Virus genome (UHGV): UHGV-0210060 | Reading direction: 5' to 3' (one strand) | Length of the DNA stretch: 40,776 nt | DNA from: a virus | In this document: in pieces, positions 4,118 through 21,542 of the stretch | Numbering within the stretch: position 1 is the stretch's first letter | How the letters are laid out: every line of letters begins with the position of its first letter | Made by a program: the position numbers and the translations under genes | Notes under the pieces: generated by a model | The model's input: the letters and a program-made list of their open reading frames with translations, nothing else | Database searches by the model: none | Told to the model about the DNA's origin: nothing

Positions 4118-5998
4118 TTAATACTCCGTCACGTTTTCCTGTCGCCACGCCTCGTCATATTCCGATTTCGGCATATTGGCGATGTAGCTATATGGCGATC
4201 CTGATTCAAGTTGCAGGAACTGGTGCGATTGCTCGTCAAGGAACAACGGGACACCACCTTCCCAACCTTCGCCGTTTCGTTGCTTTTCAAGCATCAAAAC
4301 AGATGCCGGAGATGCCAGTAGCTGTTCGTCCTTCTCTGACATCTTTTCACCACTCTGAACTCTCTGTAACGCTCTCTCGCGAGCCTTGTTACGCCAGATG
4401 ATGAAAAGGTTGTCTGTCAGGTCTGTTATCGCTCCAGAGCCTTTTACGTCCATTTTCCCGGTTGGTTTTTCTTCGCTGTCACCTTTTCGCGAGTGAGTAA
4501 CGAGAATGACGTGGGAGTTTGTTTTGTTTTTGAAATCGCAAATCGAGTCAACAAACGCCTTCTGCCCGTTATAGTCATCGTCGCCTATGCCACATTTCAT
4601 CAGGCTGTCGATGATGAATAACTGGATGCCGTATCGGCGGCGAGCGTAGTCGAATATTTCGATCAGCCTGTCGGCTTTCGCCGTTCCGGTCAGGCCAAAC
4701 ACCCAAAGTCTTTCGTCATAAAATTTAAATGCAGAGTCAATTTCCAGCACTGGCGGCATCTTGCAGCACGTCGCCTGACGGGTAAGGCGCTTAAGGAGAA
4801 TACCAGGCTTCAGCTCAAGTGACGCGATGCACGTCTTCACACCCTGACGCATTGCCTCAAGTGCCATATGCCCGACAACCTCCGTTTTTCCGTGACCGTT
4901 CACACCATTGACCAGCGTCAACTCTGCCTCACGGAACTGGAATTTATCTGCCAGAGATTCCCACGGTGGATTAAACAGATACTGCTGCTTGCCGTAGAAA
5001 GCGTTGATAGTGTCCTGGTAAAACTCTCGCGCACTGTAGAGTTCTTCAGGATCGAAGTAGGATGCCGTGCCGATGTACTGCCAGATTTCATCCTCGGTAA
5101 CACCGTTCATCAGGCATTCGTTGATGTCTTTGTACGGCAGAGTAACAAGACGGCAACGATGTTCACCGAGTCGGCTTGCGATTTCCCTTGCGGCTTCACG
5201 ACCAACATCATCAACGTCCATCGAGATGAATATTTCCTCAAACCTGTCGAGGTTGTGGTACTCAAACTCAATCCACTGTTGCTTAGCGCCTTTCCCTCCA
5301 CCAAACGGCACGGATAACGCCGAGATGCCGTATTGCGCATAGCTCATACAATCAATTTCGCCTTCGCAAAGCACAACCGCCCTCACGCCAGCGTCCAGAG
5401 CCTGCCATCCGAACAGACAAGGTTCGCAATCACCTTCTGCCATAATGACTTTCTTCCCGTCCGGGCGCTCAGTGCTGATTCGCTTGACCTGCAACAACTC
5501 ACCATCGCGTTTGTACGGAAGCACCAGTGCATCAAGTTCTCGTTCTCCCTTCCACACCTTGCCGCTGACAACCTCGTAGCGCTTTACTACTTCTGGCGAT
5601 ATGCCACGCGATTGCAGGTACTCAAGATGGGATTCTGTTCTGGTAACGTAGCGGGCGATTTTCTTGCGATCAGGTCTGGAGAATTTCTTCTCACGTTTGG
5701 CATCGAAATGGTGATCGTCATCCTTGATACCGAGAAAGGCTTTCGCTTCCTGCATAGCCTGATGCAGGTTAATTCCACGACATGCCATCCACAAATCAAG
5801 CATGTCACCGCCGTCTCCCTCAGCGAAATCAGCCCATTTTTTCTTGCCGCTAAGGTTGACCTTAAGGCTGTTTCCCTTGTCACCGTTGACGTTACCGGCA
5901 ACCCACTCATGCCCCTCTTTCTTGCCGTTTGGCAACAGGTGCGGAGCCACCCTGTCAACCTGCGCCCAAAGCAGATCGCTAAGTTCATTTGGCCTCAT
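4118..5998 (-). CDS. bifunctional DNA primase/helicase (Toprim domain + RecA/DnaB-like ATPase)
   Basis: 626 aa; Toprim-like acidic cluster (CEGEIDCMSY ... ISMDVDDVGREAA); Walker A LVNGVNGHGKTE; Walker B LFIIDSLMK; sits where lambda has P. Confidence 0.8.
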   Translation of the reverse strand: MRPNELSDLLWAQVDRVAPHLLPNGKKEGHEWVAGNVNGDKGNSLKVNLSGKKKWADFAEGDGGDMLDLWMACRGINLHQAMQEAKAFLGIKDDDHHFDAKREKKFSRPDRKKIARYVTRTESHLEYLQSRGISPEVVKRYEVVSGKVWKGERELDALVLPYKRDGELLQVKRISTERPDGKKVIMAEGDCEPCLFGWQALDAGVRAVVLCEGEIDCMSYAQYGISALSVPFGGGKGAKQQWIEFEYHNLDRFEEIFISMDVDDVGREAAREIASRLGEHRCRLVTLPYKDINECLMNGVTEDEIWQYIGTASYFDPEELYSAREFYQDTINAFYGKQQYLFNPPWESLADKFQFREAELTLVNGVNGHGKTEVVGHMALEAMRQGVKTCIASLELKPGILLKRLTRQATCCKMPPVLEIDSAFKFYDERLWVFGLTGTAKADRLIEIFDYARRRYGIQLFIIDSLMKCGIGDDDYNGQKAFVDSICDFKNKTNSHVILVTHSRKGDSEEKPTGKMDVKGSGAITDLTDNLFIIWRNKARERALQRVQSGEKMSEKDEQLLASPASVLMLEKQRNGEGWEGGVPLFLDEQSHQFLQLESGSPYSYIANMPKSEYDEAWRQENVTEY

Positions 5999-6105
5999 GA
6001 TTCCCTCAGATTGAGATTTTTAAACCAGAAATCGACAAACGAAATACTTAACCAGCCGTGGTTATAACCAGCGACCAGTAGCGATTTGATTTTTGATTTC
6101 ATGGT

Positions 6106-6966
6106 TCACCTGTCGAAAAACACGTAGCCAGTTTTCGATACGGTGATTGCGGATGATGGTTTGGATTGTGGTTGAATGGTTTCTGGCTTCTCGTCGTTCC
6201 AGCGTTGACCGTTCAGGTAGCTCGATGGTAACAACCTGTCGAATCCGAACTGCTTACCATTCCTGCATGCGATGTCTTCTGCCAGCATCGTGGCAAACTC
6301 GCTTGCCGTACCCCTGGTAGTTTTACGCCATTCCCTGAACTGTGTTCTGAATGCCGAAGCTGCGTTTTTCTTCCCGGCCTTCCGCATGCCTGCACACCAG
6401 AATATTTCCTCGAATGCCTTGTCGGTTTCTTCGTGACGGTCAGGTGATTTTTCACACTCCGTCCGAACACTTTCGGACATAGTGTTTTTATTATTTCTTT
6501 TTTCTTTTGTAATAGTTTCTTTTGTGTGTCCCTGTTTTGGTGACAGCGCTGTCACCGTTTTGGTGACACTTTTTGTCACCAATGCAGTGACATTATCACC
6601 AGAGTAGTGACACCCTTCGATTTGCCATTCCTCGATGTTCTTGTTAGGCCCGATTTGCTGGCCTTCGCGAAGGATAACCTTCATCGCGATAAGCTCATTC
6701 TTGGCCTTGTTTACCTTCTGTCTTGGCAGCCTGGTAATTTGAGCTAACTGACTATCAGAGATGCGATCCATCTTTTTACCGTAGCCGTATGTTTTACGGC
6801 ATATGGCGTGGGCAACCTTGCTCTGATTTTTCGTTAAATCTGCGCCGATAAGCTCTTCATACAGGGCATTTGCAAGACGGGTATAACCATCTTCAACTTC
6901 TGCCACACGACGCTCCACAGGCCGTTGTGAAGGCCTTAAATGTGTTACGGTTGCAAGATTACTCAT
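6106..6966 (-). CDS. replication initiator, lambda O-like N-terminal domain with divergent C-terminus
   Basis: N-terminus aligns by eye to lambda O ([26 protein letters not shown]...[20 protein letters not shown] ... GPNKNI.EW ... [10 protein letters not shown]); iterons lie inside the gene. Confidence 0.85.
6480..6620. repeat. origin of replication: AT-rich tract plus iteron-like TGACA/TGTCA repeats inside the O-like gene
   Basis: 6481..6530 is A/T-rich; 6538..6616 has repeated GGTGACA / TGTCACC units (ttttggtgacagcgctgtcaccgttttggtgacactttttgtcacc...), the arrangement seen at lambda ori. Confidence 0.65.
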
Positions 6967-9667: not shown

Positions 9668-9717
9668 GGGATGCAATGCCGAAGCAACCGCCTCAGGAGT
9701 AGCTTCGGGATTGCATC
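9668..9717 (+). other. long hairpin in the N leader (16-bp stem with one mismatch, 16-nt loop)
   Basis: GGGATGCAATGCCGAAGC ...16 nt... GCTTCGGGATTGCATC, ending 25 nt before the N start codon. Confidence 0.6.
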
Positions 9718-9742
9718 ACCAGAGTTTATTCGGGAGGAATCT

Positions 9743-10015
9743 ATGTCCAGAAAAACAGAATTTAAAGGCACCGCAGCTTCTCGCCGTAGAGCTCGTCGTG
9801 CAAATCTGCAAAGTCAGGAGGCGATCAGCTCCGACAAGCTACACAGGCCAACCCCTTCACGAGTGGTCTTGCAATGCAAGCGCAAACCAGCAATGAGAGC
9901 AGAAGTAATAACACTGACAACGTTGACCAGAAAATATGAAGGCTCAACTTGTCTTCCAAACGTAGCTATTTACGCGGCAGGCTACCGGAAATCAAAACAA
10001 CTGACGGCGAGGTAA
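9743..10015 (+). CDS. N: N-type antiterminator (arginine-rich motif)
   Basis: GGGAGG RBS; MSRKTEFKGTAASRRRARRANLQ arginine-rich N-terminus; C-terminus AIYAAGYRKSKQLTAR resembles P22 gp24 (ALYAAGHRKSKQITAR). Confidence 0.8.
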   Translation: MSRKTEFKGTAASRRRARRANLQSQEAISSDKLHRPTPSRVVLQCKRKPAMRAEVITLTTLTRKYEGSTCLPNVAIYAAGYRKSKQLTAR

Positions 10016-11085: not shown

Positions 11086-11793
11086 ATGGATTTGAACAAA
11101 TTCGATGAGCCATTCAGCCCTGAAGATATCGAATGGCGAATACAGCAAAGCGGTAAAACACGCGATGGCAAGGTGTGGGCTATGGTGCTGGCTTATGTCA
11201 CGAACCGGGCAATCATGAAGCGCCTGGACGATGTTTGCGGCAAAGCAGGATGGCGCAATGAATACCGCGATATTCCCAACAACGGCGGAGTTGAATGCGG
11301 CATATCAATCAAGATTGATTCCGAATGGGTAACCAAATGGGATGCTGCTGAAAACACGCAGGTAGAAGCCGTCAAAGGCGGTCGTTCCGGTGCAATGAAG
11401 CGCGCTGCCGTTCAGTGGGGAATCGGTCGGTATCTGTATAACCTTGAGGAAGGTTTTGCACAAACATCTCTCGATAAAAAGCAGGGATGGCACAGGGCAA
11501 AACTCAAGGATGGAACAGGATTTTACTGGCTCCCTCCATCGCTGCCGGGATGGGCAATCCCAGCATCAGATAACAAACCATCACCAGAAAATACCAACCA
11601 GAAATCTCCATCGGTTGACTGCGAACAAATCCTGAAAGACTTCAGCGATTATGCGTCAACAGAAACTGACAAGAAAAAACTCATCGAGCGTTATCAGCGT
11701 GACTGGCAATTAATGGCTGGCAACGAGGAGGCGCAGGCTAAATGCGTTCAGGTAATGAACATCAGAGTTAACGAACTAAAACAGGCGGCATAA
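11086..11793 (+). CDS. Rad52-like single-strand annealing protein (Sak type)
   Basis: Pattern DIEWR...G...GKVWAMVLAYVTNRAIMKRLDDVCGKAGWRNEY ... MKRAAVQWGIGRYLYN fits the Rad52/22 N-terminal fold signature; precedes ssb. Confidence 0.65.
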   Translation: MDLNKFDEPFSPEDIEWRIQQSGKTRDGKVWAMVLAYVTNRAIMKRLDDVCGKAGWRNEYRDIPNNGGVECGISIKIDSEWVTKWDAAENTQVEAVKGGRSGAMKRAAVQWGIGRYLYNLEEGFAQTSLDKKQGWHRAKLKDGTGFYWLPPSLPGWAIPASDNKPSPENTNQKSPSVDCEQILKDFSDYASTETDKKKLIERYQRDWQLMAGNEEAQAKCVQVMNIRVNELKQAA

Positions 11794-12309
11794 ATGGCAA
11801 GCAGAGGCGTAAATAAGGTGATCATTATTGGTCGCCTTGGGCATGATCCAGAAATCAGATATTCACCATCAGGAACGGCATTTGCAAACCTTACCGTTGC
11901 TACGTCAGAACAATGGCGTGATAAGAAAACTGGAGAGCAAAAGGAGCAGACGGAGTGGCACCGCGTGGTAATGAGCGGGAAACTGGCAGAAATTGCCAGC
12001 GAATATCTGCGAAAAGGCTCTGAGGTTTATCTTGAAGGCAAATTGCGGACAAGAAAATGGCAGGATCAAAGCGGACAGGATCGGTTCACTACCGAAGTCA
12101 TCGTGGGCGTTGGTGGAACCATGCAAATGCTTGGTGGCAAGCAAGGAGGCAATGAACAGTCTTCACCTCAGCGAAATAATGGTCAGCAACAAAGACAGCA
12201 ACCTCAGCAGCAGGGAAATCACAGCGAACCACCTATGGATTTTGACGACGATATCCCCTTTGCACCAGTAACTCTCCCCTTCCCTCGTCACGCTATTCAC
12301 GCAATTTAA
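11794..12309 (+). CDS. ssb: single-stranded DNA-binding protein with C-terminal extension
   Basis: OB-fold N-terminus ([41 protein letters not shown]...TEWHRVV), Gln/Gly-rich linker, MDFDDDIPF, then 15 extra residues [15 protein letters not shown]. Confidence 0.9.
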
Positions 12310-12317
12310 GGACTTAC

Positions 12318-12866
12318 ATGAATCACTTGATGGTTGACCTTGAAACAATGGGCAACGGGCCATACGCGCCAGTTATTTCTATTGGGGCGGTATTCTTTGA
12401 CCCGAATACCGGAGAAACAGGAGAAGAGTTCTCGGTAAATATCTCGCTTGAATCATCAATGCGATATCGAGCGCGTCCTGACGCTTCAACGATTTTATGG
12501 TGGCTGGAACAGAGTGAAGAAGCCAGAAAATCGCTAACCAGCAACACTCAGGAGCTTTCAACGGCTCTTTCATGGTTATCTGAATTCATCATAAAGAACG
12601 CTAACCACAAATTCGTTCAGGTTTGGGGGAATGGAGCATCATTTGACTGCGTTATTCTCCGAAACAGTTATTCGCTGACAGGGCAGCCAGTTCCATGGCA
12701 GTGGTGGAATGACCGCGACGTAAGAACAATCGTCGAGCTTGGAAAGGTAATAGGATTCAACCCTAAGCGAGATATGCCATTCAAAGGAACTCGCCACAAC
12801 GCGCTTGATGATGCCATCCACCAAGCCAAATACGTTTCAGCGATCTGGAAAAAGTTAGCTAAATAA
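12318..12866 (+). CDS. DEDDh 3'-5' exonuclease (DnaQ-like)
   Basis: Exo I DLETMG, Exo II NGASFDC, Exo III HNALDDA in canonical order. Confidence 0.75.
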   Translation: MNHLMVDLETMGNGPYAPVISIGAVFFDPNTGETGEEFSVNISLESSMRYRARPDASTILWWLEQSEEARKSLTSNTQELSTALSWLSEFIIKNANHKFVQVWGNGASFDCVILRNSYSLTGQPVPWQWWNDRDVRTIVELGKVIGFNPKRDMPFKGTRHNALDDAIHQAKYVSAIWKKLAK

Positions 12867-12882: not shown

Positions 12883-13179
12883 ATGCCAGCGCCTTTGTAT
12901 GGTGCGGATGACGCGCGCCGCTGTTCCGGCAATTCCGTATCGGAGGTGCTGGATAAATTCAGGAAAAACTACGACCGGATAATGTCGCTACCGCAGGAAA
13001 CGAAAGAGGAAAAGGAGTTTCGCCACTGCATATGGCTTGCAGAGAAAGAAGAACGCGATCGAATTTACCAGACATCAATCCGACCATTCCGCAAAGCCAC
13101 ATATACCCACTTCCCTGAATATATCGACCCGCGCCTGCGTAATTACCGCTCACGCTATGGCGCTATCAGTAATGACTGA
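12883..13179 (+). CDS. hypothetical protein (98 aa)
   Basis: Co-oriented ORF in early-left operon; no motif recognised. Confidence 0.5.
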
Positions 13180-13354
13180 GGAATTTACCATGAGAGGACT
13201 TGCATACAATCCCAGCATTCTTCCGGCAGAAATGATTATTCGCCAACGCGTAAAGCCAATGCCATCGAGAGAGGAATTGCTTAAGAGAAAGAGTTTCGGT
13301 TCTGTTAATGACAACAAATATCTGAATGCGATGTGGCGGAGTGGGAAGAAATGA
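13172..13354 (+). CDS. hypothetical small protein (60 aa)
   Basis: ORF overlapping both neighbours' ends; start 13172 or 13190. Confidence 0.35.
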
Positions 13355-13827
13355 AACAAATGTCACTAATTGAGATGGATGGTTTTCTGAAAGGTAAATG
13401 CATCCCACGAGATTTAAAGGTTAACGAAACAAACGCTGAATATCTGGTGCGTAAGTTCGGTGAGCTTGAATCAAAACTGGAAACGGCGTTGCGGGAGTGT
13501 CGTTCTGCTGGAATCACGATTGATAACCTTGAGGCTAAATGCGCGAAGATGGCTGCAGAAAATACCTCGCTTAAGCAATCTGAGAAGGAATTTAATGACT
13601 TTTGTCGTGAGGAGTTTAGCGAATGGGAAGATGATGTTACTGAAACCCCAGCCACCGACACTTTCCTGGATGAAGTGCGGGCGCAGGCGTTTAATGACCT
13701 TTGCTCGGCGTTCGTTAAACACGCGAATCTCGCGGGAATGGATGATGGTGAGCTAGTGAGGCTTAAATATGCGACGGACGCCCTGCTGCATTGTGCAGAC
13801 CAACTTCGCAAGGGAGTGCATTCATGA
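13351..13827 (+). CDS. hypothetical protein (~158 aa)
   Basis: ATG 13351 overlaps previous stop; acidic, predicted helical. Confidence 0.5.
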
Positions 13828-14057
13828 GCAACCTACTACCATGTCCATTCTGTGGCGGCGCAGCGCACGTTGCCAGCGAAGCGGATCACCCTGAATATGG
13901 CTCTGGCGGTCGATTCTATTTCGTTCGATGCGGTACGTGTCGCGCTCAATCTGGTAGCAAATATGCAGCGCCTGGAAATGACTGCGCGATTTTTTATTCA
14001 GAGGTTAGAGCAGAGTGGAATCAGCGAGCAAAGGAGGCAAACAGTGAGCAAGATTGA
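13824..14057 (+). CDS. lar: Lar-family restriction-alleviation protein
   Basis: [12 protein letters not shown]...VRCGTCRAQSG: small Cys4 protein with the CPFCG signature of Lar-family proteins. Confidence 0.7.
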   Translation: MSNLLPCPFCGGAAHVASEADHPEYGSGGRFYFVRCGTCRAQSGSKYAAPGNDCAIFYSEVRAEWNQRAKEANSEQD

Positions 14058-14895
14058 CTATCAGGCACTGCGTGAAAAGGCAGAGAAAGCAACGTGTGGT
14101 GTATGGTCGCTCGAATATGGAGAGGGACGATTTGATGGTGATGATGCACTAATTCATCGCGAGGTTTCTGGATATATTCCTATTTGCAGAATTGAAGGAG
14201 CGCATCCAGAAAGCGGTTTCGATGAAGATTTCCAAATGGAACAGCAGGCCAACGCTGAATTCATCGCCGCAGCCAATCCGGCTACCGTCTTGGCGCTGCT
14301 GGATGAACGGGAAAGAAACCAGCAATACATCAAACGCCGCGACCAGGAGAACGAGGATATTGCGCTAACGGTAGGGAAGCTGCGTGTTGATCTGGAAGCA
14401 GCAAAAAAGCGCATAGCAGAACTGGAAGCCGACCCCGTAAGCCAAACTTACAACTTGCCAGAATTAATCGAGGGCATGGAAGTTTCCATTGATGTAAGCA
14501 CTTGTGATGCTGATTTAGGTAATCGCTATTTCGGCACCGTCACCGAGGCGTTAGAACTTGATACAGCCAAGAATGGTTACATCCTCCTGGTTCAGGACGC
14601 AGAGCCAAACTTCGATGTAAATGGCAACTCTCCGGTAACTCCGGATGGTTGGGTCATGGTGCCGAAGAGACTAACAGCCGAGAACGGCGCTAAGGGTGCG
14701 CTATCCGGTGAATTTTCAGAAACTACGTTTATCAGCTGCCCGGAATGCTTTGGCGATGATGATTGCGATACCTGTGACGGTAGCGGGCGGATTGAAATTA
14801 AAGTACCAGTCACATGGACGACCATAAAATCCATCTGGGATAAAGGTATTGCGTATTTTGCAGCAGAACCGCCGCAGGAGGTTAACCTTGGCTAA
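14044..14895 (+). CDS. Ea22-like protein
   Basis: GTG start after AGGAGG; N-terminus MSKIDYQALREKAEKATCGVWSLEYG typical of lambdoid Ea22-like proteins; upstream part of the listed ORF overlaps lar in another frame. Confidence 0.6.
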   Translation: MSKIDYQALREKAEKATCGVWSLEYGEGRFDGDDALIHREVSGYIPICRIEGAHPESGFDEDFQMEQQANAEFIAAANPATVLALLDERERNQQYIKRRDQENEDIALTVGKLRVDLEAAKKRIAELEADPVSQTYNLPELIEGMEVSIDVSTCDADLGNRYFGTVTEALELDTAKNGYILLVQDAEPNFDVNGNSPVTPDGWVMVPKRLTAENGAKGALSGEFSETTFISCPECFGDDDCDTCDGSGRIEIKVPVTWTTIKSIWDKGIAYFAAEPPQEVNLG

Positions 14896-15172
14896 CCTAC
14901 AACTTGCCGTTAAAGGTGAATACTTCGATGCCATGATTCGCAGAGAGAAAACGGAAGAGTATCGCCTGTGTAATGACTACTGGAATAAGCGAATTATGTT
15001 CCGGGAGTATGATCGCCTGATTATCACAAAGGGATATCCGAAGCGCGACGATTCCAGCCGTAGAATTGATGTTCCGTATGACGGATATGAAATCAAGACA
15101 ATCACACATCCGCACTTCGGCGATAAACCGGTAAAGGTGTTCGCGATAAAGGTGAATATCGGCAATGAATAA
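14888..15172 (+). CDS. hypothetical protein (~94 aa; start uncertain, possibly TTG)
   Basis: Open frame overlapping the Ea22-like stop; no ATG near the 5' end. Confidence 0.4.
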   Translation: MANLQLAVKGEYFDAMIRREKTEEYRLCNDYWNKRIMFREYDRLIITKGYPKRDDSSRRIDVPYDGYEIKTITHPHFGDKPVKVFAIKVNIGNE

Positions 15173-15231
15173 CAATCCTCGAACTCGCGGGGATTTCTTT
15201 TATCTGAACTCGCTACGGCGAGTTTTGTTTT

Positions 15232-15543
15232 ATGGAGATGATTATGGCCTGTTCAACATTCAACCATCTAACGTTACAGAAATACCAGCCAGACCCTGAA
15301 GATTTATGCTCACTGTGTGGCGGAAATCATGGTAAAGCCGCCATGATCGAATGTAAGGACAAAATCCACATTTGCCTTAATTGCGTTGATGTCCTCGTTG
15401 ATATCAAAAATGAGAGAGAAGATAAAAAGCGTAGCGAGGCTATTCGCGCATTAGATTCATGGATGCGAGATGGGTATAGTGCTGCGCAAATTTATGACTT
15501 CGCAATATCAAAAGGCGAAATACCAGGAGTGCGCATCGAATAA
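15232..15543 (+). CDS. hypothetical Cys-rich protein (103 aa)
   Basis: CSLCGG...CLNC cysteine pairs suggest a zinc ribbon; followed by a terminator. Confidence 0.55.
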   Translation: MEMIMACSTFNHLTLQKYQPDPEDLCSLCGGNHGKAAMIECKDKIHICLNCVDVLVDIKNEREDKKRSEAIRALDSWMRDGYSAAQIYDFAISKGEIPGVRIE

Positions 15544-15585
15544 GACGTAACCAATATTCGAATTGAAGAACTGAAAGAACACCAA

Positions 15586-15607
15586 GCCGCCTGATGGCGG
15601 TTTTTTC
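15586..15607 (+). terminator. intrinsic terminator upstream of xis
   Basis: GCCGCC-tgat-GGCGG followed by TTTTTTCTT. Confidence 0.7.
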
Positions 15608-15633
15608 TTGCGTGTAATTGCGGAGACTTTGCG

Positions 15634-15852
15634 ATGTACTTGACACTTCAGGAGTGGAACGCACGCCAGCGACGCCCAAGAAGCCTTGAAACAGTTCGTC
15701 GATGGGTACGCGAGTGCAGGATATTCCCTCCTCCGGTTAAGGATGGAAGAGAGTATCTGTTCCACGAATCAGCGGTAAAGGTTGACTTAAATCGACCAGT
15801 AACAGGTAGCCTTTTGAAGAGGATCAAAAATGGGAAGAAGGCGAAGTCATGA
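15634..15852 (+). CDS. xis: excisionase Xis (lambda type)
   Basis: MYLTLQEWNARQRRPRSLETVRRWVRECRIFPPPVKDGREYLFHESAVKVDLNRP... is essentially lambda Xis. Confidence 0.95.
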   Translation: MYLTLQEWNARQRRPRSLETVRRWVRECRIFPPPVKDGREYLFHESAVKVDLNRPVTGSLLKRIKNGKKAKS

Positions 15853-16900
15853 GCGCCGGGATTTACCCCCTAATCTTTATATAAGAAACAATGGATATTA
15901 CTGCTACAGGGACCCAAGGACGGGTAAAGAGTTTGGATTAGGCCGAGACAGGAGGATAGCAATCACTGAAGCTATACAGGCCAACATTGAGTTATTTTCA
16001 GGACACAAACACAAGCCTCTGACAGCGAGAATCAACAGTGATAATTCTGTTACGTTACATTCATGGCTTGATCGCTACGAAAAAATCCTCGCCAACAGAG
16101 GAATCAAGCAGAAGACACTCATAAATTACATGAGCAAAATTAAAGCAATAAGGAGGGGGCTGCCTGATGCTCCACTTGAAGACATCACCACAAAAGAAAT
16201 TGCAGCAATGCTCAATGGATACATAGACGAGGGCAAGGCGGCGTCAGCCAAGTTAATCAGATCAACACTGAGCGATGCATTCCGAGAGGCAATAGCTGAA
16301 GGCCATATAACAACAAACCCGGTCACTGCCACTCGCGCAGCAAAATCAGAGGTAAGGAGATCAAGACTTACGGCTGACGAATACCTGAAAATTTATCAAG
16401 CAGCAGAATCATCACCATGTTGGCTTAGACTTGCAATGGAACTGGCTGTTGTTACCGGGCAGCGTGTTGGGGATTTATGCGAAATGAAGTGGTCTGATAT
16501 CGTAGATGGCTATCTTTATGTCGAGCAAAGCAAAACCGGCGTAAAAATTGCCATCCCAACAACATTGCATGTTGATGCTCTTGGGATATCAATGAAGGAA
16601 ACACTTGATAAATGCAAAGAGATTCTTGGCGGAGAAACCATAATTGCATCTACTCGTCGTGAACCGCTTTCATCCGGCACAGTATCAAGGTATTTTATGC
16701 GCGCACGAAAAGCATCAGGTCTTTCCTTCGAAGGGGATCCGCCTACCTTTCACGAGTTGCGCAGTTTGTCTGCAAGACTCTATGAGAAGCAGATAAGCGA
16801 TAAGTTTGCTCAACATCTTCTCGGGCATAAGTCGGACACCATGGCATCACAGTATCGTGATGACAGAGGCAGGGAGTGGGACAAAATTGAAATCAAATAA
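15830..16900 (+). CDS. int: integrase Int (lambda-type tyrosine recombinase)
   Basis: 356 aa; MGRRRSHERRDLPPNLYIRNNGYYCYRDPRTGKEFGLGRD... near-identical to lambda Int along its length; overlaps xis. Confidence 0.95.
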   Translation: MGRRRSHERRDLPPNLYIRNNGYYCYRDPRTGKEFGLGRDRRIAITEAIQANIELFSGHKHKPLTARINSDNSVTLHSWLDRYEKILANRGIKQKTLINYMSKIKAIRRGLPDAPLEDITTKEIAAMLNGYIDEGKAASAKLIRSTLSDAFREAIAEGHITTNPVTATRAAKSEVRRSRLTADEYLKIYQAAESSPCWLRLAMELAVVTGQRVGDLCEMKWSDIVDGYLYVEQSKTGVKIAIPTTLHVDALGISMKETLDKCKEILGGETIIASTRREPLSSGTVSRYFMRARKASGLSFEGDPPTFHELRSLSARLYEKQISDKFAQHLLGHKSDTMASQYRDDRGREWDKIEIK

Positions 16901-17130
16901 TGATTTTATTTTGACTGATAGTGACCTGTTCGTTGCAACAAATTGATAAGCAATGCTTTTTTATAATGCCAACTTAGTATAAAAAAGCTGAATGAGAAAC
17001 AAGAAAAATCATCAATATCAATGTGTTATGATGGTTTTGGTCTAAATAATAGACTACATAATACTGCAAAACACAGCATGTGCAGTCACTATGAATCAAC
17101 TACTTAGATGGTATTAGTGACCTGTAACAG
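16900..17130. other. attP (lambda-type core at 16974..16988 with P and P' arms)
   Basis: TTAGTATAAAAAAGC is the reverse complement of the lambda core GCTTTTTTATACTAA; the int-proximal arm matches lambda, the distal arm is recognisable but diverged. Confidence 0.85.
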
Positions 17131-17437
17131 AGCATTAGCGCAAGGTGATTTTTTTTCTTCTTGCGCTAATTTTTTGTCAACTCACTGGGTTAGTTGAATT
17201 TACAACCATGCTCAGTATCTCGATAAGCGCAGAGAAATGATGCAGTGGTGGGCGGACTGGCTTGATGAAAAGGTGGAGCAACCAACATTGCTATATCTCA
17301 GATAGCACAAAGCCTTGCAATCCAGTGCAAAGCCTTGTGTGTCTCAGTTTTGCCTCATAGGTAATGAGGCTTTAACTGCGATGCAGTAATCAATACTAAA
17401 ATTTACTTAAAATTCATAAATACACCAGATAAAAACA

Positions 17438-17459
17438 ATCCCGCATTTTTATGCGGGAT
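17438..17459 (-). terminator. intrinsic terminator after the tailspike gene
   Basis: ATCCCGCAT-tttt-ATGCGGGAT with a T-run on the minus strand. Confidence 0.7.
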
Positions 17460-17477
17460 ATACTGCATTTATTGCAA

Positions 17478-20183
17478 CTACATTGCCATTAATATAAACA
17501 TAGCCAATTCGTCATAACGAATTCCGTAGCGTCCTCCTGCTTTTTTTACAAGAATCATATCTCCTGTTTTATATTGAGAATAAATTTTCTCACCTGTATC
17601 AGGATCTGTGCTCTCTTCAGTTATCACCTCTTCATCCCATACGTCAGGCCATTCATCGTAACACCAAAAAGCATATTGCTCAGGGTTTAAACCATGCTTT
17701 CTAAGAATATCCCCTACGGTTTGAGCGCCAACGCCAAAATGATACCTGGACGACTCAATTCCTTTGTTATTAATTGAGTCATTAAATTTAAATTTATAGA
17801 TGACTGACTTTATTTCAATAGCGGCATCACGCTCTGCATTAAGAATATCATATCTTGTTTTAAGAGTTTCATCTGATGTATTGATTGACCCGGTTCCTGC
17901 ATAAATAACAGAGCATCTGTTTGATGGCTGTCCAATGGCTTTAACATTATCATCAACAGGAGCTATTTTATTAGCATCTGCCAACCACCAGTCTGTTCCA
18001 TCAGCGTGACCGATTCTTACTCTTATCCCACTTCTAATATTTAAACTTCCAGTATTACTCTGTAAATTACAATCTCCTGACGTTGGTCCAAGCAGTACAG
18101 TTTTACCAACACCACATACTACTCTGGCATTTCCTTTTTGTGATACGAGTCTTGACTCACCTCCTGACTGCTCAGGAAGAGATTTATGGTCTATAAATGC
18201 ATCGCGGGGGTTAAATACACCGTCTCCGGAATTATATCTTCCTCCTGTATAGTTGTTAAATACAGGACCCCAGTCAACGCCATTGCCTTCAGAGCACCCG
18301 ACCATTCTAAGCACTCGAGTATTCCCTGCTGCATATGGTAATGAGCTTGTTGATTGCCGGGAAGCTATCATACGTGCTCCATAACCAATAGCATTACCAC
18401 CATTTATAGTTACATATGCTTGCTGGCTTTCGAAATATGTACTGTAAAAGTTCATATTTCCACAGTCATGTAGATGAATAAGAACATCATCCCATCCCTG
18501 AATGGTTCCTGCATGTACCTGTACACCGCGAACTGGTTCCCCTGAAACCTCCATACACTCTGATGGTCGGCTGAATGGTTGAGACAGGTATTGCGATGTG
18601 GCAAGCAGATGTGTGTGGTGATACAGGCTGGTAATGTAGCAATCGAAAAATTGCGTTCCCGCCATACCAAAGTTATCTATGTCATTTCGCCGTATAGTAG
18701 AACCTACTGTTGCCTCAGAAGCGTTAGACACTCCAGTAAATACTAACTTATCACCGGATACGGATAATCCTGAATAAGTGAAATTCCTGCCTCCAGATCT
18801 TAAAACCCCGGACGTTTCGAAGGTGTGGCTTGCTGACCATGGTATTTCGATAGTGCTGGACGTTACCGCTGTAATTCGGAATACATCATGGGCGCGGATC
18901 GAAATACCCTTGAATCCTTGGAATCTACAGTGATAATAGTTTTCATCCTCGCCCTGAGCGGCCAGCGTGCCAGATACAGGAATGTTCGTTTTTAAAAGTG
19001 CCGTCTTGCGCCAGTATCCAACCACCTGCAAATTGCGGTATTCATTGCCAAAAGACGCACGTGACCAAATACCTACATCCCACTCATCGCCAAGACCGGT
19101 ATTTGCAATGTCTTTATAACCATCCAGCCCATTGAAATATGGAACAACACGAAAGTTCTCAAGGCGAACACATCCTGTCTCAGGCATCAATATTGCGGCA
19201 GAGAATGGTTTAAGCGTGGCTCTTGTAGTCCCATTAGCATCACCGTTAGTAAAATCCAATAAATCATATGATGACGCAGGTGCCGTTGTTGTATACGGGT
19301 CTTCGGAAGATGGGTTAGAAACCACACCACCACTAACATCCATATTAGAAACACAATCTACAGTATATTTTTTATTTCCTACCCCGTACATCAGGAATGT
19401 GGTCCCTGTGGTAATATCAGGAGCAAATGTTGCAGTATATCCTGAGACCCATTTGCCCACACCAAGACAAATTATCCCACCACCAGAAACAGGTGTTAAC
19501 GTATCCGTTATTACATACGCATTATCAGTACCATAAATAACCTTTCCTGTGTTAAGGGCAGCTTGCCACGCGGCCCAGTCTATTGACTGAGATAATGAGT
19601 CAACAAAAGGATATAAGGATTTTGCTTCAGAAATTGAAGAAAACCACTCAGATAATGGATGATATTTCCCATCCCCAATTGCTCCAAATTGTTTTACATT
19701 TAAGAAAAGAGCATTGTTTTCATGCTGAGTTATAGTTGCAGCCCCGGTAAATGGCTGCCTTACCCCAATTAATGCATCACCTTTTGAATCATCATTAATG
19801 TATGCTCCTGATTGAGATAACTGCTCTTTGAAGTCTGGGCCAAACTGATCTGGATCGTATTTTAATACATTTGGAAAATAAAACTGCTGAGTGCCATAAG
19901 CATCGTAAACAGCCATAGAATGGCCTTGCACGGTAACGAATTTGGCAATCTGTCCGTTATATACCGGATAACCAGCAGCGTTAATGATGATGGGTTGCGA
20001 AACAGGAGCGTGAGAACCGTCTTCGTTCTCCACATAAACCTGAATCTGGTTTTCAGGATTTACCGGGTCAGTGTCAATTTTACCGATATAAATTTTGCCA
20101 TTGGCTACGGCTTTAAAAGAACGAGCCATAGTGAAGAGTTGCGAAGGCATGCTTACCACAACATTGGCTGTAATGTCTGTCAT
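17478..20183 (-). CDS. tailspike (P22-type head-binding domain, beta-helix domain, C-terminal intramolecular chaperone)
   Basis: 901 aa; N-terminal ~110 aa match the P22 gp9 head-binding domain ([45 protein letters not shown] ... [12 protein letters not shown] ... NVLKYDPDQ); [10 protein letters not shown] glycosidase-like start; [11 protein letters not shown] near the C-terminus. Confidence 0.85.
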
Positions 20184-21258: not shown

Positions 21259-21320
21259 GTTGGTTTTTCTCCACGGATTTACCGACAACCGAAGCCCTGA
21301 CTGTTCCAGCAGTTGGGGCT

Positions 21321-21542
21321 TCAACGTTTTTGTAAGTCACTGTAGCTATAAAGCCACTGACCACTCATTTTTGATTTGATTGACTCTACTGAGTCACGGC
21401 AAGGAATGATTCCGCCTGACATCATTCTGATTTCCGTAAATTCACCACTCCTTATCGATTCAATGCCATCAATGTTAACTAAAGATTTACCTCTACCACG
21501 TGCATTCTCATAGCCAATCTCATCAACCTCAATAAACCTCAT
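21321..21542 (-). CDS. hypothetical protein (73 aa) between arc and ant
   Basis: ATG overlaps arc stop (ATGA); no motif recognised. Confidence 0.45.

Follow-up and report, generated by a model that had tools for sequence, protein, structure and literature searches.

A P22-like early accessory gene block with a predicted stand-alone homologue of the ClpX zinc-binding domain

Seven Genes Between Recombination Genes and xis

The virus genome UHGV-0210060, analyzed here as one stretch of 40,776 nucleotides (the window), carries at 12883-15543 a block of seven co-oriented genes on the + strand, as determined from an open reading frame (ORF) listing and from reading of the sequence. An earlier note on this DNA had placed the block between recombination genes and xis, and this location holds, with genes for a Rad52-type protein, an SSB, and an exonuclease upstream and xis-int downstream. 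The same note had described seven ORFs with overlapping or coupled starts. The gene calls agree: neighboring genes overlap at four of the six junctions (ATGA, ATGA, 14 nt, and 8 nt, in this order), which are preceded by a 10-nt gap and followed by one of 71 nt, and independent gene calls on identical E. coli prophages reproduced the same set of proteins of 98, 54, 158, 77, 283, 94, and 99 amino acids. The accompanying claim that only a Lar and an Ea22-like protein were recognizable did not survive database searches, which also matched Abc2 (PF11043, 91% identity to the P22 protein), a DUF2737 protein (P22 orf56), P22 EaE, a probable ASCH fold, and a ClpX-type zinc finger. All seven proteins match PHROG families with E values of 1e-13 to 1e-69, far beyond chance. 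The only matches of the block ORFs in the NCBIfam scan were to Lar and ClpX, both sub-threshold.

Several alternative gene calls were considered and rejected. Starts at 13852 for the Ea22-like gene and at 14849 for the ASCH-like gene were dropped in favor of 14044 and 14888 on the basis of ribosome-binding sites, homologue lengths, and PHROG coordinates. An eighth ORF at 15165-15299 (44 amino acids) was treated as spurious because it is without homologues, lies across two hairpins, and was not called by other annotators. Within the block, no Rfam family reached threshold, and a search for direct and inverted repeats returned short, chance-level pairs only.

Pieces of the block recur in 547 phage records as well as in 3,746 of the 5,426 complete E. 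coli genomes, and none of these covers at least 80% of it. In at least 24 E. coli assemblies, the identical seven-gene block lies at an attB beside a ybhC-like gene. Given at least 24 assemblies with the whole block and ~3,700 of the 5,426 genomes with its modules, the region is of the ordinary accessory type known as P22 'ea' / lambda 'exo-xis', in another permutation, with every gene in a catalogued phage family. It is a shuffled assortment of known modules rather than a dedicated system, and as a whole it carries little weight: re-annotation (Abc2, DUF2737/orf56, EaE-like, Lar, Ead/Ea22, and ASCH) clears most of its mystery.

Among the closest parallels is the ea region of P22 (abc2-orf56-eaE-orf45-eaF-eaD-eaI-eaA-eaG-eaC-xis-int), with which the block shares its position, its orientation, and the order of the common genes between the recombination genes and xis. 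Identities to the P22 proteins are 91% for Abc2, 72% for the DUF2737 protein (orf56), 40% over 131 amino acids for the EaE-like protein, and 76% over a 46-amino-acid stretch of the Ead/Ea22-like protein (EaD). The gene order also parallels that of ST104, HK620 (hka genes), and HK629. Unlike P22, the block includes Lar-family, ASCH-fold, and ClpX-type genes that are without P22 counterparts, abc1 is absent, Erf is replaced by a Rad52-type protein together with an SSB and a DnaQ-like exonuclease, and xis, int, and attP are of lambda type. The exo-xis stretch in lambda and Shiga-toxin (Stx) phages (orf60a, orf63, orf61, orf73, ea22, ea8.5, and orf55) is likewise made up of small, non-essential genes that are transcribed early from PL and lie between recombination genes and xis. 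In common with lambda are the N-terminal and coiled-coil domains of Ea22, and in common with the Stx phage 933W are the ASCH-like protein (L0064) and the Cys-rich protein (L0063). Unlike lambda, the block is without homologues of orf60a, orf63, orf61, ea8.5, and orf55, and the C-terminal domain of Ea22 is replaced by unrelated modules.

Position in a Putative PL Operon

We consider it highly probable that the block is the distal, non-essential accessory part of an N-antiterminated PL operon, in a mosaic P22-like (Lederbergvirus-type) temperate phage with lambda int, xis, and attP. The head of this operon would be marked by an N-type antiterminator gene at 9671-10015 (+ strand; Pfam N_peptide PF25694, E 6e-32), and a CII protein is encoded in the window on the strand opposite to the block. 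The seven small, mostly translationally coupled genes would be transcribed from PL right after infection or induction via N-dependent read-through, a timing that we infer from gene order and published lambda work. Each product would probably bind a host or phage macromolecule, which is backed experimentally, in an ortholog, only for Abc2.

Two points weigh against this reading. Five of the seven proteins are without an experimentally characterized close relative. In addition, transcription could end before the last gene if antitermination fails, at two tandem terminator-like hairpins in the 71-nt gap (15174-15225, + strand), each with a T-run, that were detected by a terminator scan and have a fold z-score of -2.9.

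The ~70-nt spacer containing both hairpins (15168-15242) is found by itself in many lambdoid phages (93-97% identity), and those that bear it differ in their flanking genes (mEp213, JEP4, E26-Berryhill, and Salmonella P22-like phages). The record of phage MG40 annotates a terminator at this element. The spacer looks like a conserved terminator pair or, alternatively, a module-boundary sequence where recombination joins different accessory genes.

A Cys-Rich Protein With Predicted Homology to the ClpX N-Domain

The last gene of the block (15244-15543), bracketed by terminator-like hairpins at 15174-15225 and at 15584-15603, encodes a Cys-rich protein of 99 amino acids, which the earlier note had delimited as 15232..15543 and described as having CxxC pairs. 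The pairs are present as described, and 15244 is the likeliest start because GGAG lies 5 nt upstream of it, the PHROG 3680 match spans residues 5-103 when the longer ORF is used, and homologues are 99 amino acids in length. The protein is the same as L0063 of 933W, the product of gene 19 of Sf6 (gp19), and a protein of Kapi1 (phrog_3680 at 6e-69). It was identified in 53 phage records, with VT2-Sakai among the carriers, and is named 'hypothetical' in all of them. The family is small and enterobacterial, comprising 36 clusters at 90% identity and 34 representatives among 1.84 billion proteins.

Comparison of the family with other zinc-binding proteins points to ClpX. Four cysteines (C22, C25, C44, and C47) are invariant in the phage family and align with the zinc ligands of ClpX, while a fifth (C37) is not conserved. 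The Pfam family zf-C4_ClpX was the top match in 18 of 20 family members, at sub-threshold scores. When a family profile was searched against all PDB sequences, only ClpX chains were returned, in register over the four cysteines. Alignment with hhalign against residues 1-60 of E. coli ClpX gave a probability of 92.7%, which rose to 97.1% (E 7e-11, 40 columns) with a broader profile of 19 sequences. Controls in the same comparison did not exceed 27%; these were five proteins rich in cysteine (the Lar-like protein, RalR, YdaE, lambda Ea8.5, and the Ead C-terminal module) and two small P22 ea proteins, EaF and orf45. Kinship with lambda Ea8.5, a zinc finger protein encoded at the same position, was considered and rejected (hhalign 4%, no BLAST match). 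Full-length relatives exceed the PF06689 gathering cut-off (P0288 at 43.3 bits, P0287 at 31.7, P0292 at 29.5, and P0283 at 28.4); these have the same architecture as the window protein, and P0287 also has the same C-terminal tail.

Two results count against the assignment. The window protein itself scores 15.7 bits against PF06689, under the cut-off of 27. An AlphaFold2 (AF2) model built from a 20-sequence alignment is unreliable, with a predicted local distance difference test (pLDDT) score of 67.7 overall and of ~50 in the zinc region, which was drawn as helices; owing to the low pLDDT in this region, the model was set aside for fold searches. The profile alignments nonetheless show that the Cys-rich protein is a homologue, encoded on its own, of the zinc-binding domain (ZBD) at the N-terminus of ClpX, and we refer to it below as ZBD-like. 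It is a domain homologue and not a ClpX, because it is without the AAA+ module.

The likeness to the ClpX N-domain (PF06689; PDB 1OVX, 2DS5-2DS8) includes the identical spacing C-x2-C-x18-C-x2-C, the motifs CS(F/L)CG and IC-x2-CV(D)L, and 32% identity over 37 columns. Unlike ClpX, the phage protein is a stand-alone polypeptide of 99 amino acids. It has an N-terminal PDP motif of its own, along with a long charged helix and a C-terminal tail that is conserved. Outside the zinc domain, Y-x-P-D-P-x-D is conserved directly before the first cysteine, and the family has two alternative conserved C-termini, G-K-I-P-x-[IV]-R-I-[DE] or L-Y-D-A-G-Y-R-K. In the window protein, the zinc ligands are followed by the charged helix and then by the tail G-x-I-P-x-[VI]-R-I-[DE]. 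Conservation of the extreme C-terminus suggests a docking peptide or a degron.

The annotation of the L0063/Sf6 gp19 family as ClpX-related appears to be new, since literature searches returned nothing on a ClpX zinc-domain protein or inhibitor encoded by a phage ('zf-C4_ClpX' was mentioned in one unrelated paper) and a review of exo-xis modelling does not discuss L0063 or L0064. It is an inference of homology and describes no new kind of system. As a side benefit, a protein of 933W, VT2-Sakai, Sf6, Kapi1, and many E. coli prophages gains a specific annotation that can be tested.

Possible Roles of the ZBD-Like Protein

What such a protein might do is suggested by its cellular counterpart. Lambda O is a classical ClpXP substrate, and its degradation is N-domain-dependent. 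The ClpX N-domain dimerizes alone and recognizes adaptors (SspB and RssB) and some substrates (MuA and FtsZ), but not the ssrA tag (PMC5415555), so that a free homologue could heterodimerize with it or titrate its ligands. We put forward, as the preferred mechanism for this protein, plausible but speculative and on balance improbable, that the 99-amino-acid protein is a phage mimic of the ClpX N-domain that would selectively switch off adaptor- and N-domain-dependent ClpXP proteolysis early in infection. It would do so either by heterodimerizing with the ClpX N-domain or by acting as a decoy for N-domain ligands, such as the SspB and RssB adaptors, lambda-O-type initiators, or other N-domain-dependent substrates. 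The expected result, a mechanism that we infer from the homology, would be a selective damping of N-domain-dependent ClpXP proteolysis. As an outcome, phage proteins could be stabilized, or protease-triggered toxin-antitoxin or abortive-infection responses could be blocked. The phage itself encodes a lambda-O-type initiator (PF04492), which fits the mimic idea.

Small early phage proteins that modulate a host ATP-dependent protease are an established category, in which lambda RexB acts on Clp and T4 PinA and T7 gp4.5 act on Lon (PMC10286901). The ZBD-like protein is likened to these by its proposed function, and, unlike what is proposed for it, RexB, PinA, and gp4.5 are not domain mimics of a protease. 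If the proposal were true, it would make the protein the first ClpX inhibitor of the domain-mimic type to be described from a phage. If it altered the selection of ClpX substrates or adaptors, temperate and Shiga-toxin phages would have a new route to control host proteolysis, which could bear on replication-protein stability, prophage induction, and protease-dependent defense.

Other observations weigh against a role in ClpXP proteolysis. A shared fold or domain is no demonstration of contact with ClpX or its clients, and ZBD-like repeat proteins without an AAA+ module exist elsewhere, so that a domain of this kind can serve other purposes. The main rival explanation is that the ClpX-type treble-clef zinc ribbon is a generic scaffold for dimerization or for binding nucleic acid or protein, for example in an excision or integration factor, with no connection to ClpXP. 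We regard this as a serious possibility, if somewhat short of an even chance. Proteins other than ClpX with one to three ZBD-like repeats fit it, as does gene position: the window gene is the last before xis, and relatives stand one to five genes ahead of the excisionase in prophages of Enterobacter and in one unrelated prophage, a late operon position (zero to five genes ahead of it) being common to all of these. The N-terminal Y-x-P-D-P motif and the C-terminal tail, which have no ClpX counterpart, also favor a scaffold with a separate role. On the other hand, the protein is without a DNA-binding motif, the phage encodes an O-type initiator that could be a client, and one of the stretches best conserved between the family and ClpX is the helix (C-V-D-L-x-x-x-I) that follows the second CxxC and that lies, in ClpX, at the ZBD dimer interface.

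Annotation of the Other Block Genes

The first gene of the block (12883-13179; 98 amino acids) was assigned by homology as abc2, encoding anti-RecBCD protein 2, and is the best characterized member of the block. Its product matches PF11043 over its full length (1.2e-60; 202 bits, cut-off 25; residues 1-98 aligned to profile positions 1-97), matches phrog_656, and aligns with the solved structure of P22 Abc2 (PDB 8B1T/8B1U) at E 4.6e-55. The gene lies directly downstream of genes for a Rad52/22-type annealing protein (11086-11793, + strand; Pfam PF04098), an SSB (11794-12309, + strand; precomputed Pfam on an identical prophage), and a DnaQ/Rv2179c-like 3'-5' exonuclease (12318-12866, + strand; Pfam PF16473, 2.6e-73), and functionally it is the last gene of this recombination module. 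The arrangement fits a previously tabulated module type that combines an SSB, a nuclease, an annealing protein, and an anti-RecBCD protein, with ES18 as the prototype (PMC12315714).

P22 Abc2 binds RecC and blocks Chi activation (PMC12315714). The window protein would likewise bind RecC and reprogram RecBCD to work with the phage annealing protein, as has been shown for the 91%-identical P22 protein. No Chi site (GCTGGTGG) is present on either strand of the whole window, where ~1 is expected by chance. This absence agrees weakly with the tendency of Abc2- or Gam-encoding lambdoid phages to have few Chi sites (PMC12315714).

The second gene (13190-13354; 54 amino acids) encodes a DUF2737 protein (PF10930 at 4e-29) that is an ortholog of P22 orf56, HK620 hkaI, and HK97 gp38, according to annotation notes in ST104 and HK629; a PDB sequence search with it returned nothing useful. 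The third gene (13351-13827; 158 amino acids), which has an ATGA start/stop overlap at either end, encodes a predicted EaE-like coiled-coil protein of the HK620 hkaH type (phrog_614 at 5e-59), for which there was no Pfam or PDB match. The family phrog_368 matches both the C-terminal part of this 158-amino-acid protein and the N-terminal Ead part of the 283-amino-acid protein described below. Domain shuffling between the neighboring genes at 13351-13827 and 14044-14895 appears to be visible in this common match.

The fourth gene (13824-14057; 77 amino acids) had been called an anti-restriction Lar. The family call has support, in that the product matches Pfam PF14354 at 38.5 bits (cut-off 28.6) and phrog_599 and has the hallmarks of a C4 zinc ribbon (C7-P-F-C10-G, C36-G-T-C39, and a W-N-Q-R motif). 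Against it are a score of 29.4 bits for NCBIfam TIGR03655, under the cut-off of 39.6, and an identity to Lar/RalR of the Rac prophage of only 26% over 42 amino acids; a PDB sequence search returned nothing useful. These data are consistent with a distant member of the Lar family. The distance from RalR, whose own current annotation is that of a DNase toxin, makes 'anti-restriction' a label taken from the family and not a finding. Alleviation of type I restriction by this zinc ribbon is a possibility raised by family membership only.

Rac Lar is annotated in the MG1655 RefSeq record as 'endodeoxyribonuclease toxin RalR' with a small RNA (sRNA) antitoxin, RalA, and RalR is described as a DNase toxin (PMC4041452). 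This raises the alternative that the window gene encodes a RalR-type DNase toxin of a type I toxin-antitoxin system, or has some other DNA-directed activity, rather than an anti-restriction function. Both proteins are small C4 zinc ribbons with CPFCG and WN-x-R motifs, the window protein being 13 residues longer, and both genes lie between recombination genes and xis, with Rac ralR between recT and xis. We nevertheless judge this alternative very unlikely. The identity to RalR is low, and the window gene is embedded in translationally coupled ATGA and overlap junctions and not in an independent cassette. Unlike for Rac RalR, an antisense sRNA partner was not detected by the Rfam scan, in which no family but sar was above threshold in the window, the existence of an Rfam model for RalA not having been checked.

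The fifth gene (14044-14895; 283 amino acids) has a GTG start with AAAGGAGG 6 nt upstream. Its earlier description as Ea22-like was borne out by a match to PF13935 (115 bits, 4.5e-33, residues 2-125) and by 37.5% identity (E 2e-24) between residues 1-158 and residues 1-131 of lambda Ea22. The protein divides into three modules: residues ~1-130 form an Ead N-domain with a coiled coil, ~140-193 a middle module that is optional, and ~194-283 the C-terminal module. Among homologues, the ~55-amino-acid middle module is gained or lost, and C-terminal modules (DUF551 and others) are exchanged. The BLAST alignment with lambda Ea22 ends at residue 131 of 182, and the dimeric alpha/beta domain at the C-terminus of lambda Ea22, which has been solved by nuclear magnetic resonance (PMC10834534), was not found in the 283-amino-acid protein, for which no PDB chain matched at E ≤1. 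The C-terminal module instead carries a conserved DnaJ-like zinc motif, CPEC-x5-CDTCDGSG, because of which some annotators name relatives 'DnaJ'. A 100% identical protein is present in E. coli. The protein is probably a coiled-coil oligomer of modular build. Its relative in lambda tilts the decision toward lysogeny: Ea22 of lambda and Stx phages is pro-lysogenic in published genetics, and not anti-defense (PMC7093339, PMC10834534).

The sixth gene (14888-15172; 94 amino acids) has a TTG start with AGGAGG 6 nt upstream. Its product matches phrog_625 at 3e-50 and is of the 933W L0064 type; homologues begin with MANLQL and are named 'ASCH domain-containing' or 'RNA-binding' by NCBI. An AF2 model (pLDDT 82.7) was compared with the PDB by Foldseek, and the top matches were the ASCH proteins 3IUW (E 0.011), 2Z0T, 1XNE, 5GUS, and YqfB, followed by YTH domains. 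The motif G-E-K-T-E-E-Y-R in homologues is one that we take to resemble the ASCH motif GxKxxExR, with the window protein having R at the G position. The predicted structure therefore makes an ASCH/PUA-like beta-barrel fold probable, and a protein with this fold would probably bind nucleic acid, possibly modified bases. Several results temper the assignment: the Foldseek matches are weak (TM 0.5-0.6, none at E ≤0.001) and provide support at the level of the fold only; no Pfam or NCBIfam ASCH match was obtained by sequence; and PDB sequence searches with the single sequence and with the family profile gave chance-level matches and no ASCH chain.

Anti-Defense Functions in the Block

The earlier note held that early-left genes ahead of the integrase often encode host takeover or anti-defense functions. 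This is fair as a generalization, and in this block experimental backing, through an ortholog, extends to Abc2 only. Read more strongly, the block would be mainly an anti-defense island of counter-restriction and host-takeover genes, most of the seven neutralizing immunity. The case for such an island begins with Abc2, which targets RecBCD (PMC12315714), and with the accessory regions beside abc2, which are hot spots for counter-defense and defense-trigger genes (bioRxiv 10.1101/2023.04.06.535777). The block also has a Lar-family member, and the ZBD-like protein, if a ClpXP inhibitor, could block protease-dependent toxin-antitoxin defenses like RexB, PinA, and gp4.5. Yet the Lar assignment is distant, the lambda-type Ea22 family has a role in the lysis-lysogeny decision in published genetics (PMC7093339), and the DUF2737, EaE-like, and ASCH proteins are without a link to defense, leaving abc2 as the one gene with an experimentally supported counter-defense ortholog. 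A PADLOC scan of all eight candidate ORFs returned no match, which counts against the anti-defense reading only weakly because PADLOC models defense and not anti-defense proteins. We consider an anti-defense island to be unlikely and favor an ordinary accessory region.

A Lambda Integration Module in a P22-Like Genome

Downstream of the block, a terminator-like hairpin with an 8-bp stem and a T-run was identified by terminator scan at 15584-15603 (+ strand). It is followed, directly upstream of xis, by a pattern match to a cII box, TTGC-N6-TTGC (TTGCGTGTAATTGC; 15608-15621, + strand), in a pI-type promoter region. In HK629, the xis-int region of which is of lambda/HK022 type, a 14-nt 'lambda cII binding site' is annotated in the corresponding place, 13 nt upstream of xis. 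The lambda-type xis (15634-15852, + strand) matches Pfam Exc PF07825 at 7.6e-41, and the lambda-type int (15830-16900, + strand) was recognized from integrase domains on an identical prophage. The attP core GCTTTTTTATACTAA (16974-16988, - strand) is an exact match to that of lambda, with 0 expected by chance. Identical prophages adjoin a pectinesterase (ybhC-like) gene, which we take to be the gene that flanks the lambda attachment site. The exact attP core and the pI-type cII box before xis show that this P22-like podovirus genome carries the complete lambda integration module.

The closest phage match is a Lederbergvirus, and of the first 25 kb it covers no more than 37%. The sar antisense RNA points to an immI (ant) region of P22 type; it lies at 21259-21326 (+ strand; Rfam RF00262, 88 bits). 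The tailspike gene (17478-20183, - strand; 901 amino acids) encodes the P22 head-binding domain (PF09008, 2.8e-66) joined to a C-terminal endosialidase-type chaperone (Peptidase_S74), with a receptor-binding part whose module is not the one in P22. The GC content is low (0.37-0.38) around 17000-18000, near the tailspike gene. The replication module (4118-6966, - strand) comprises the lambda-O-type initiator (PF04492) and a 626-amino-acid Toprim and DnaB-like primase-helicase, which is the partner of the initiator in place of a lambda P-type helicase loader.

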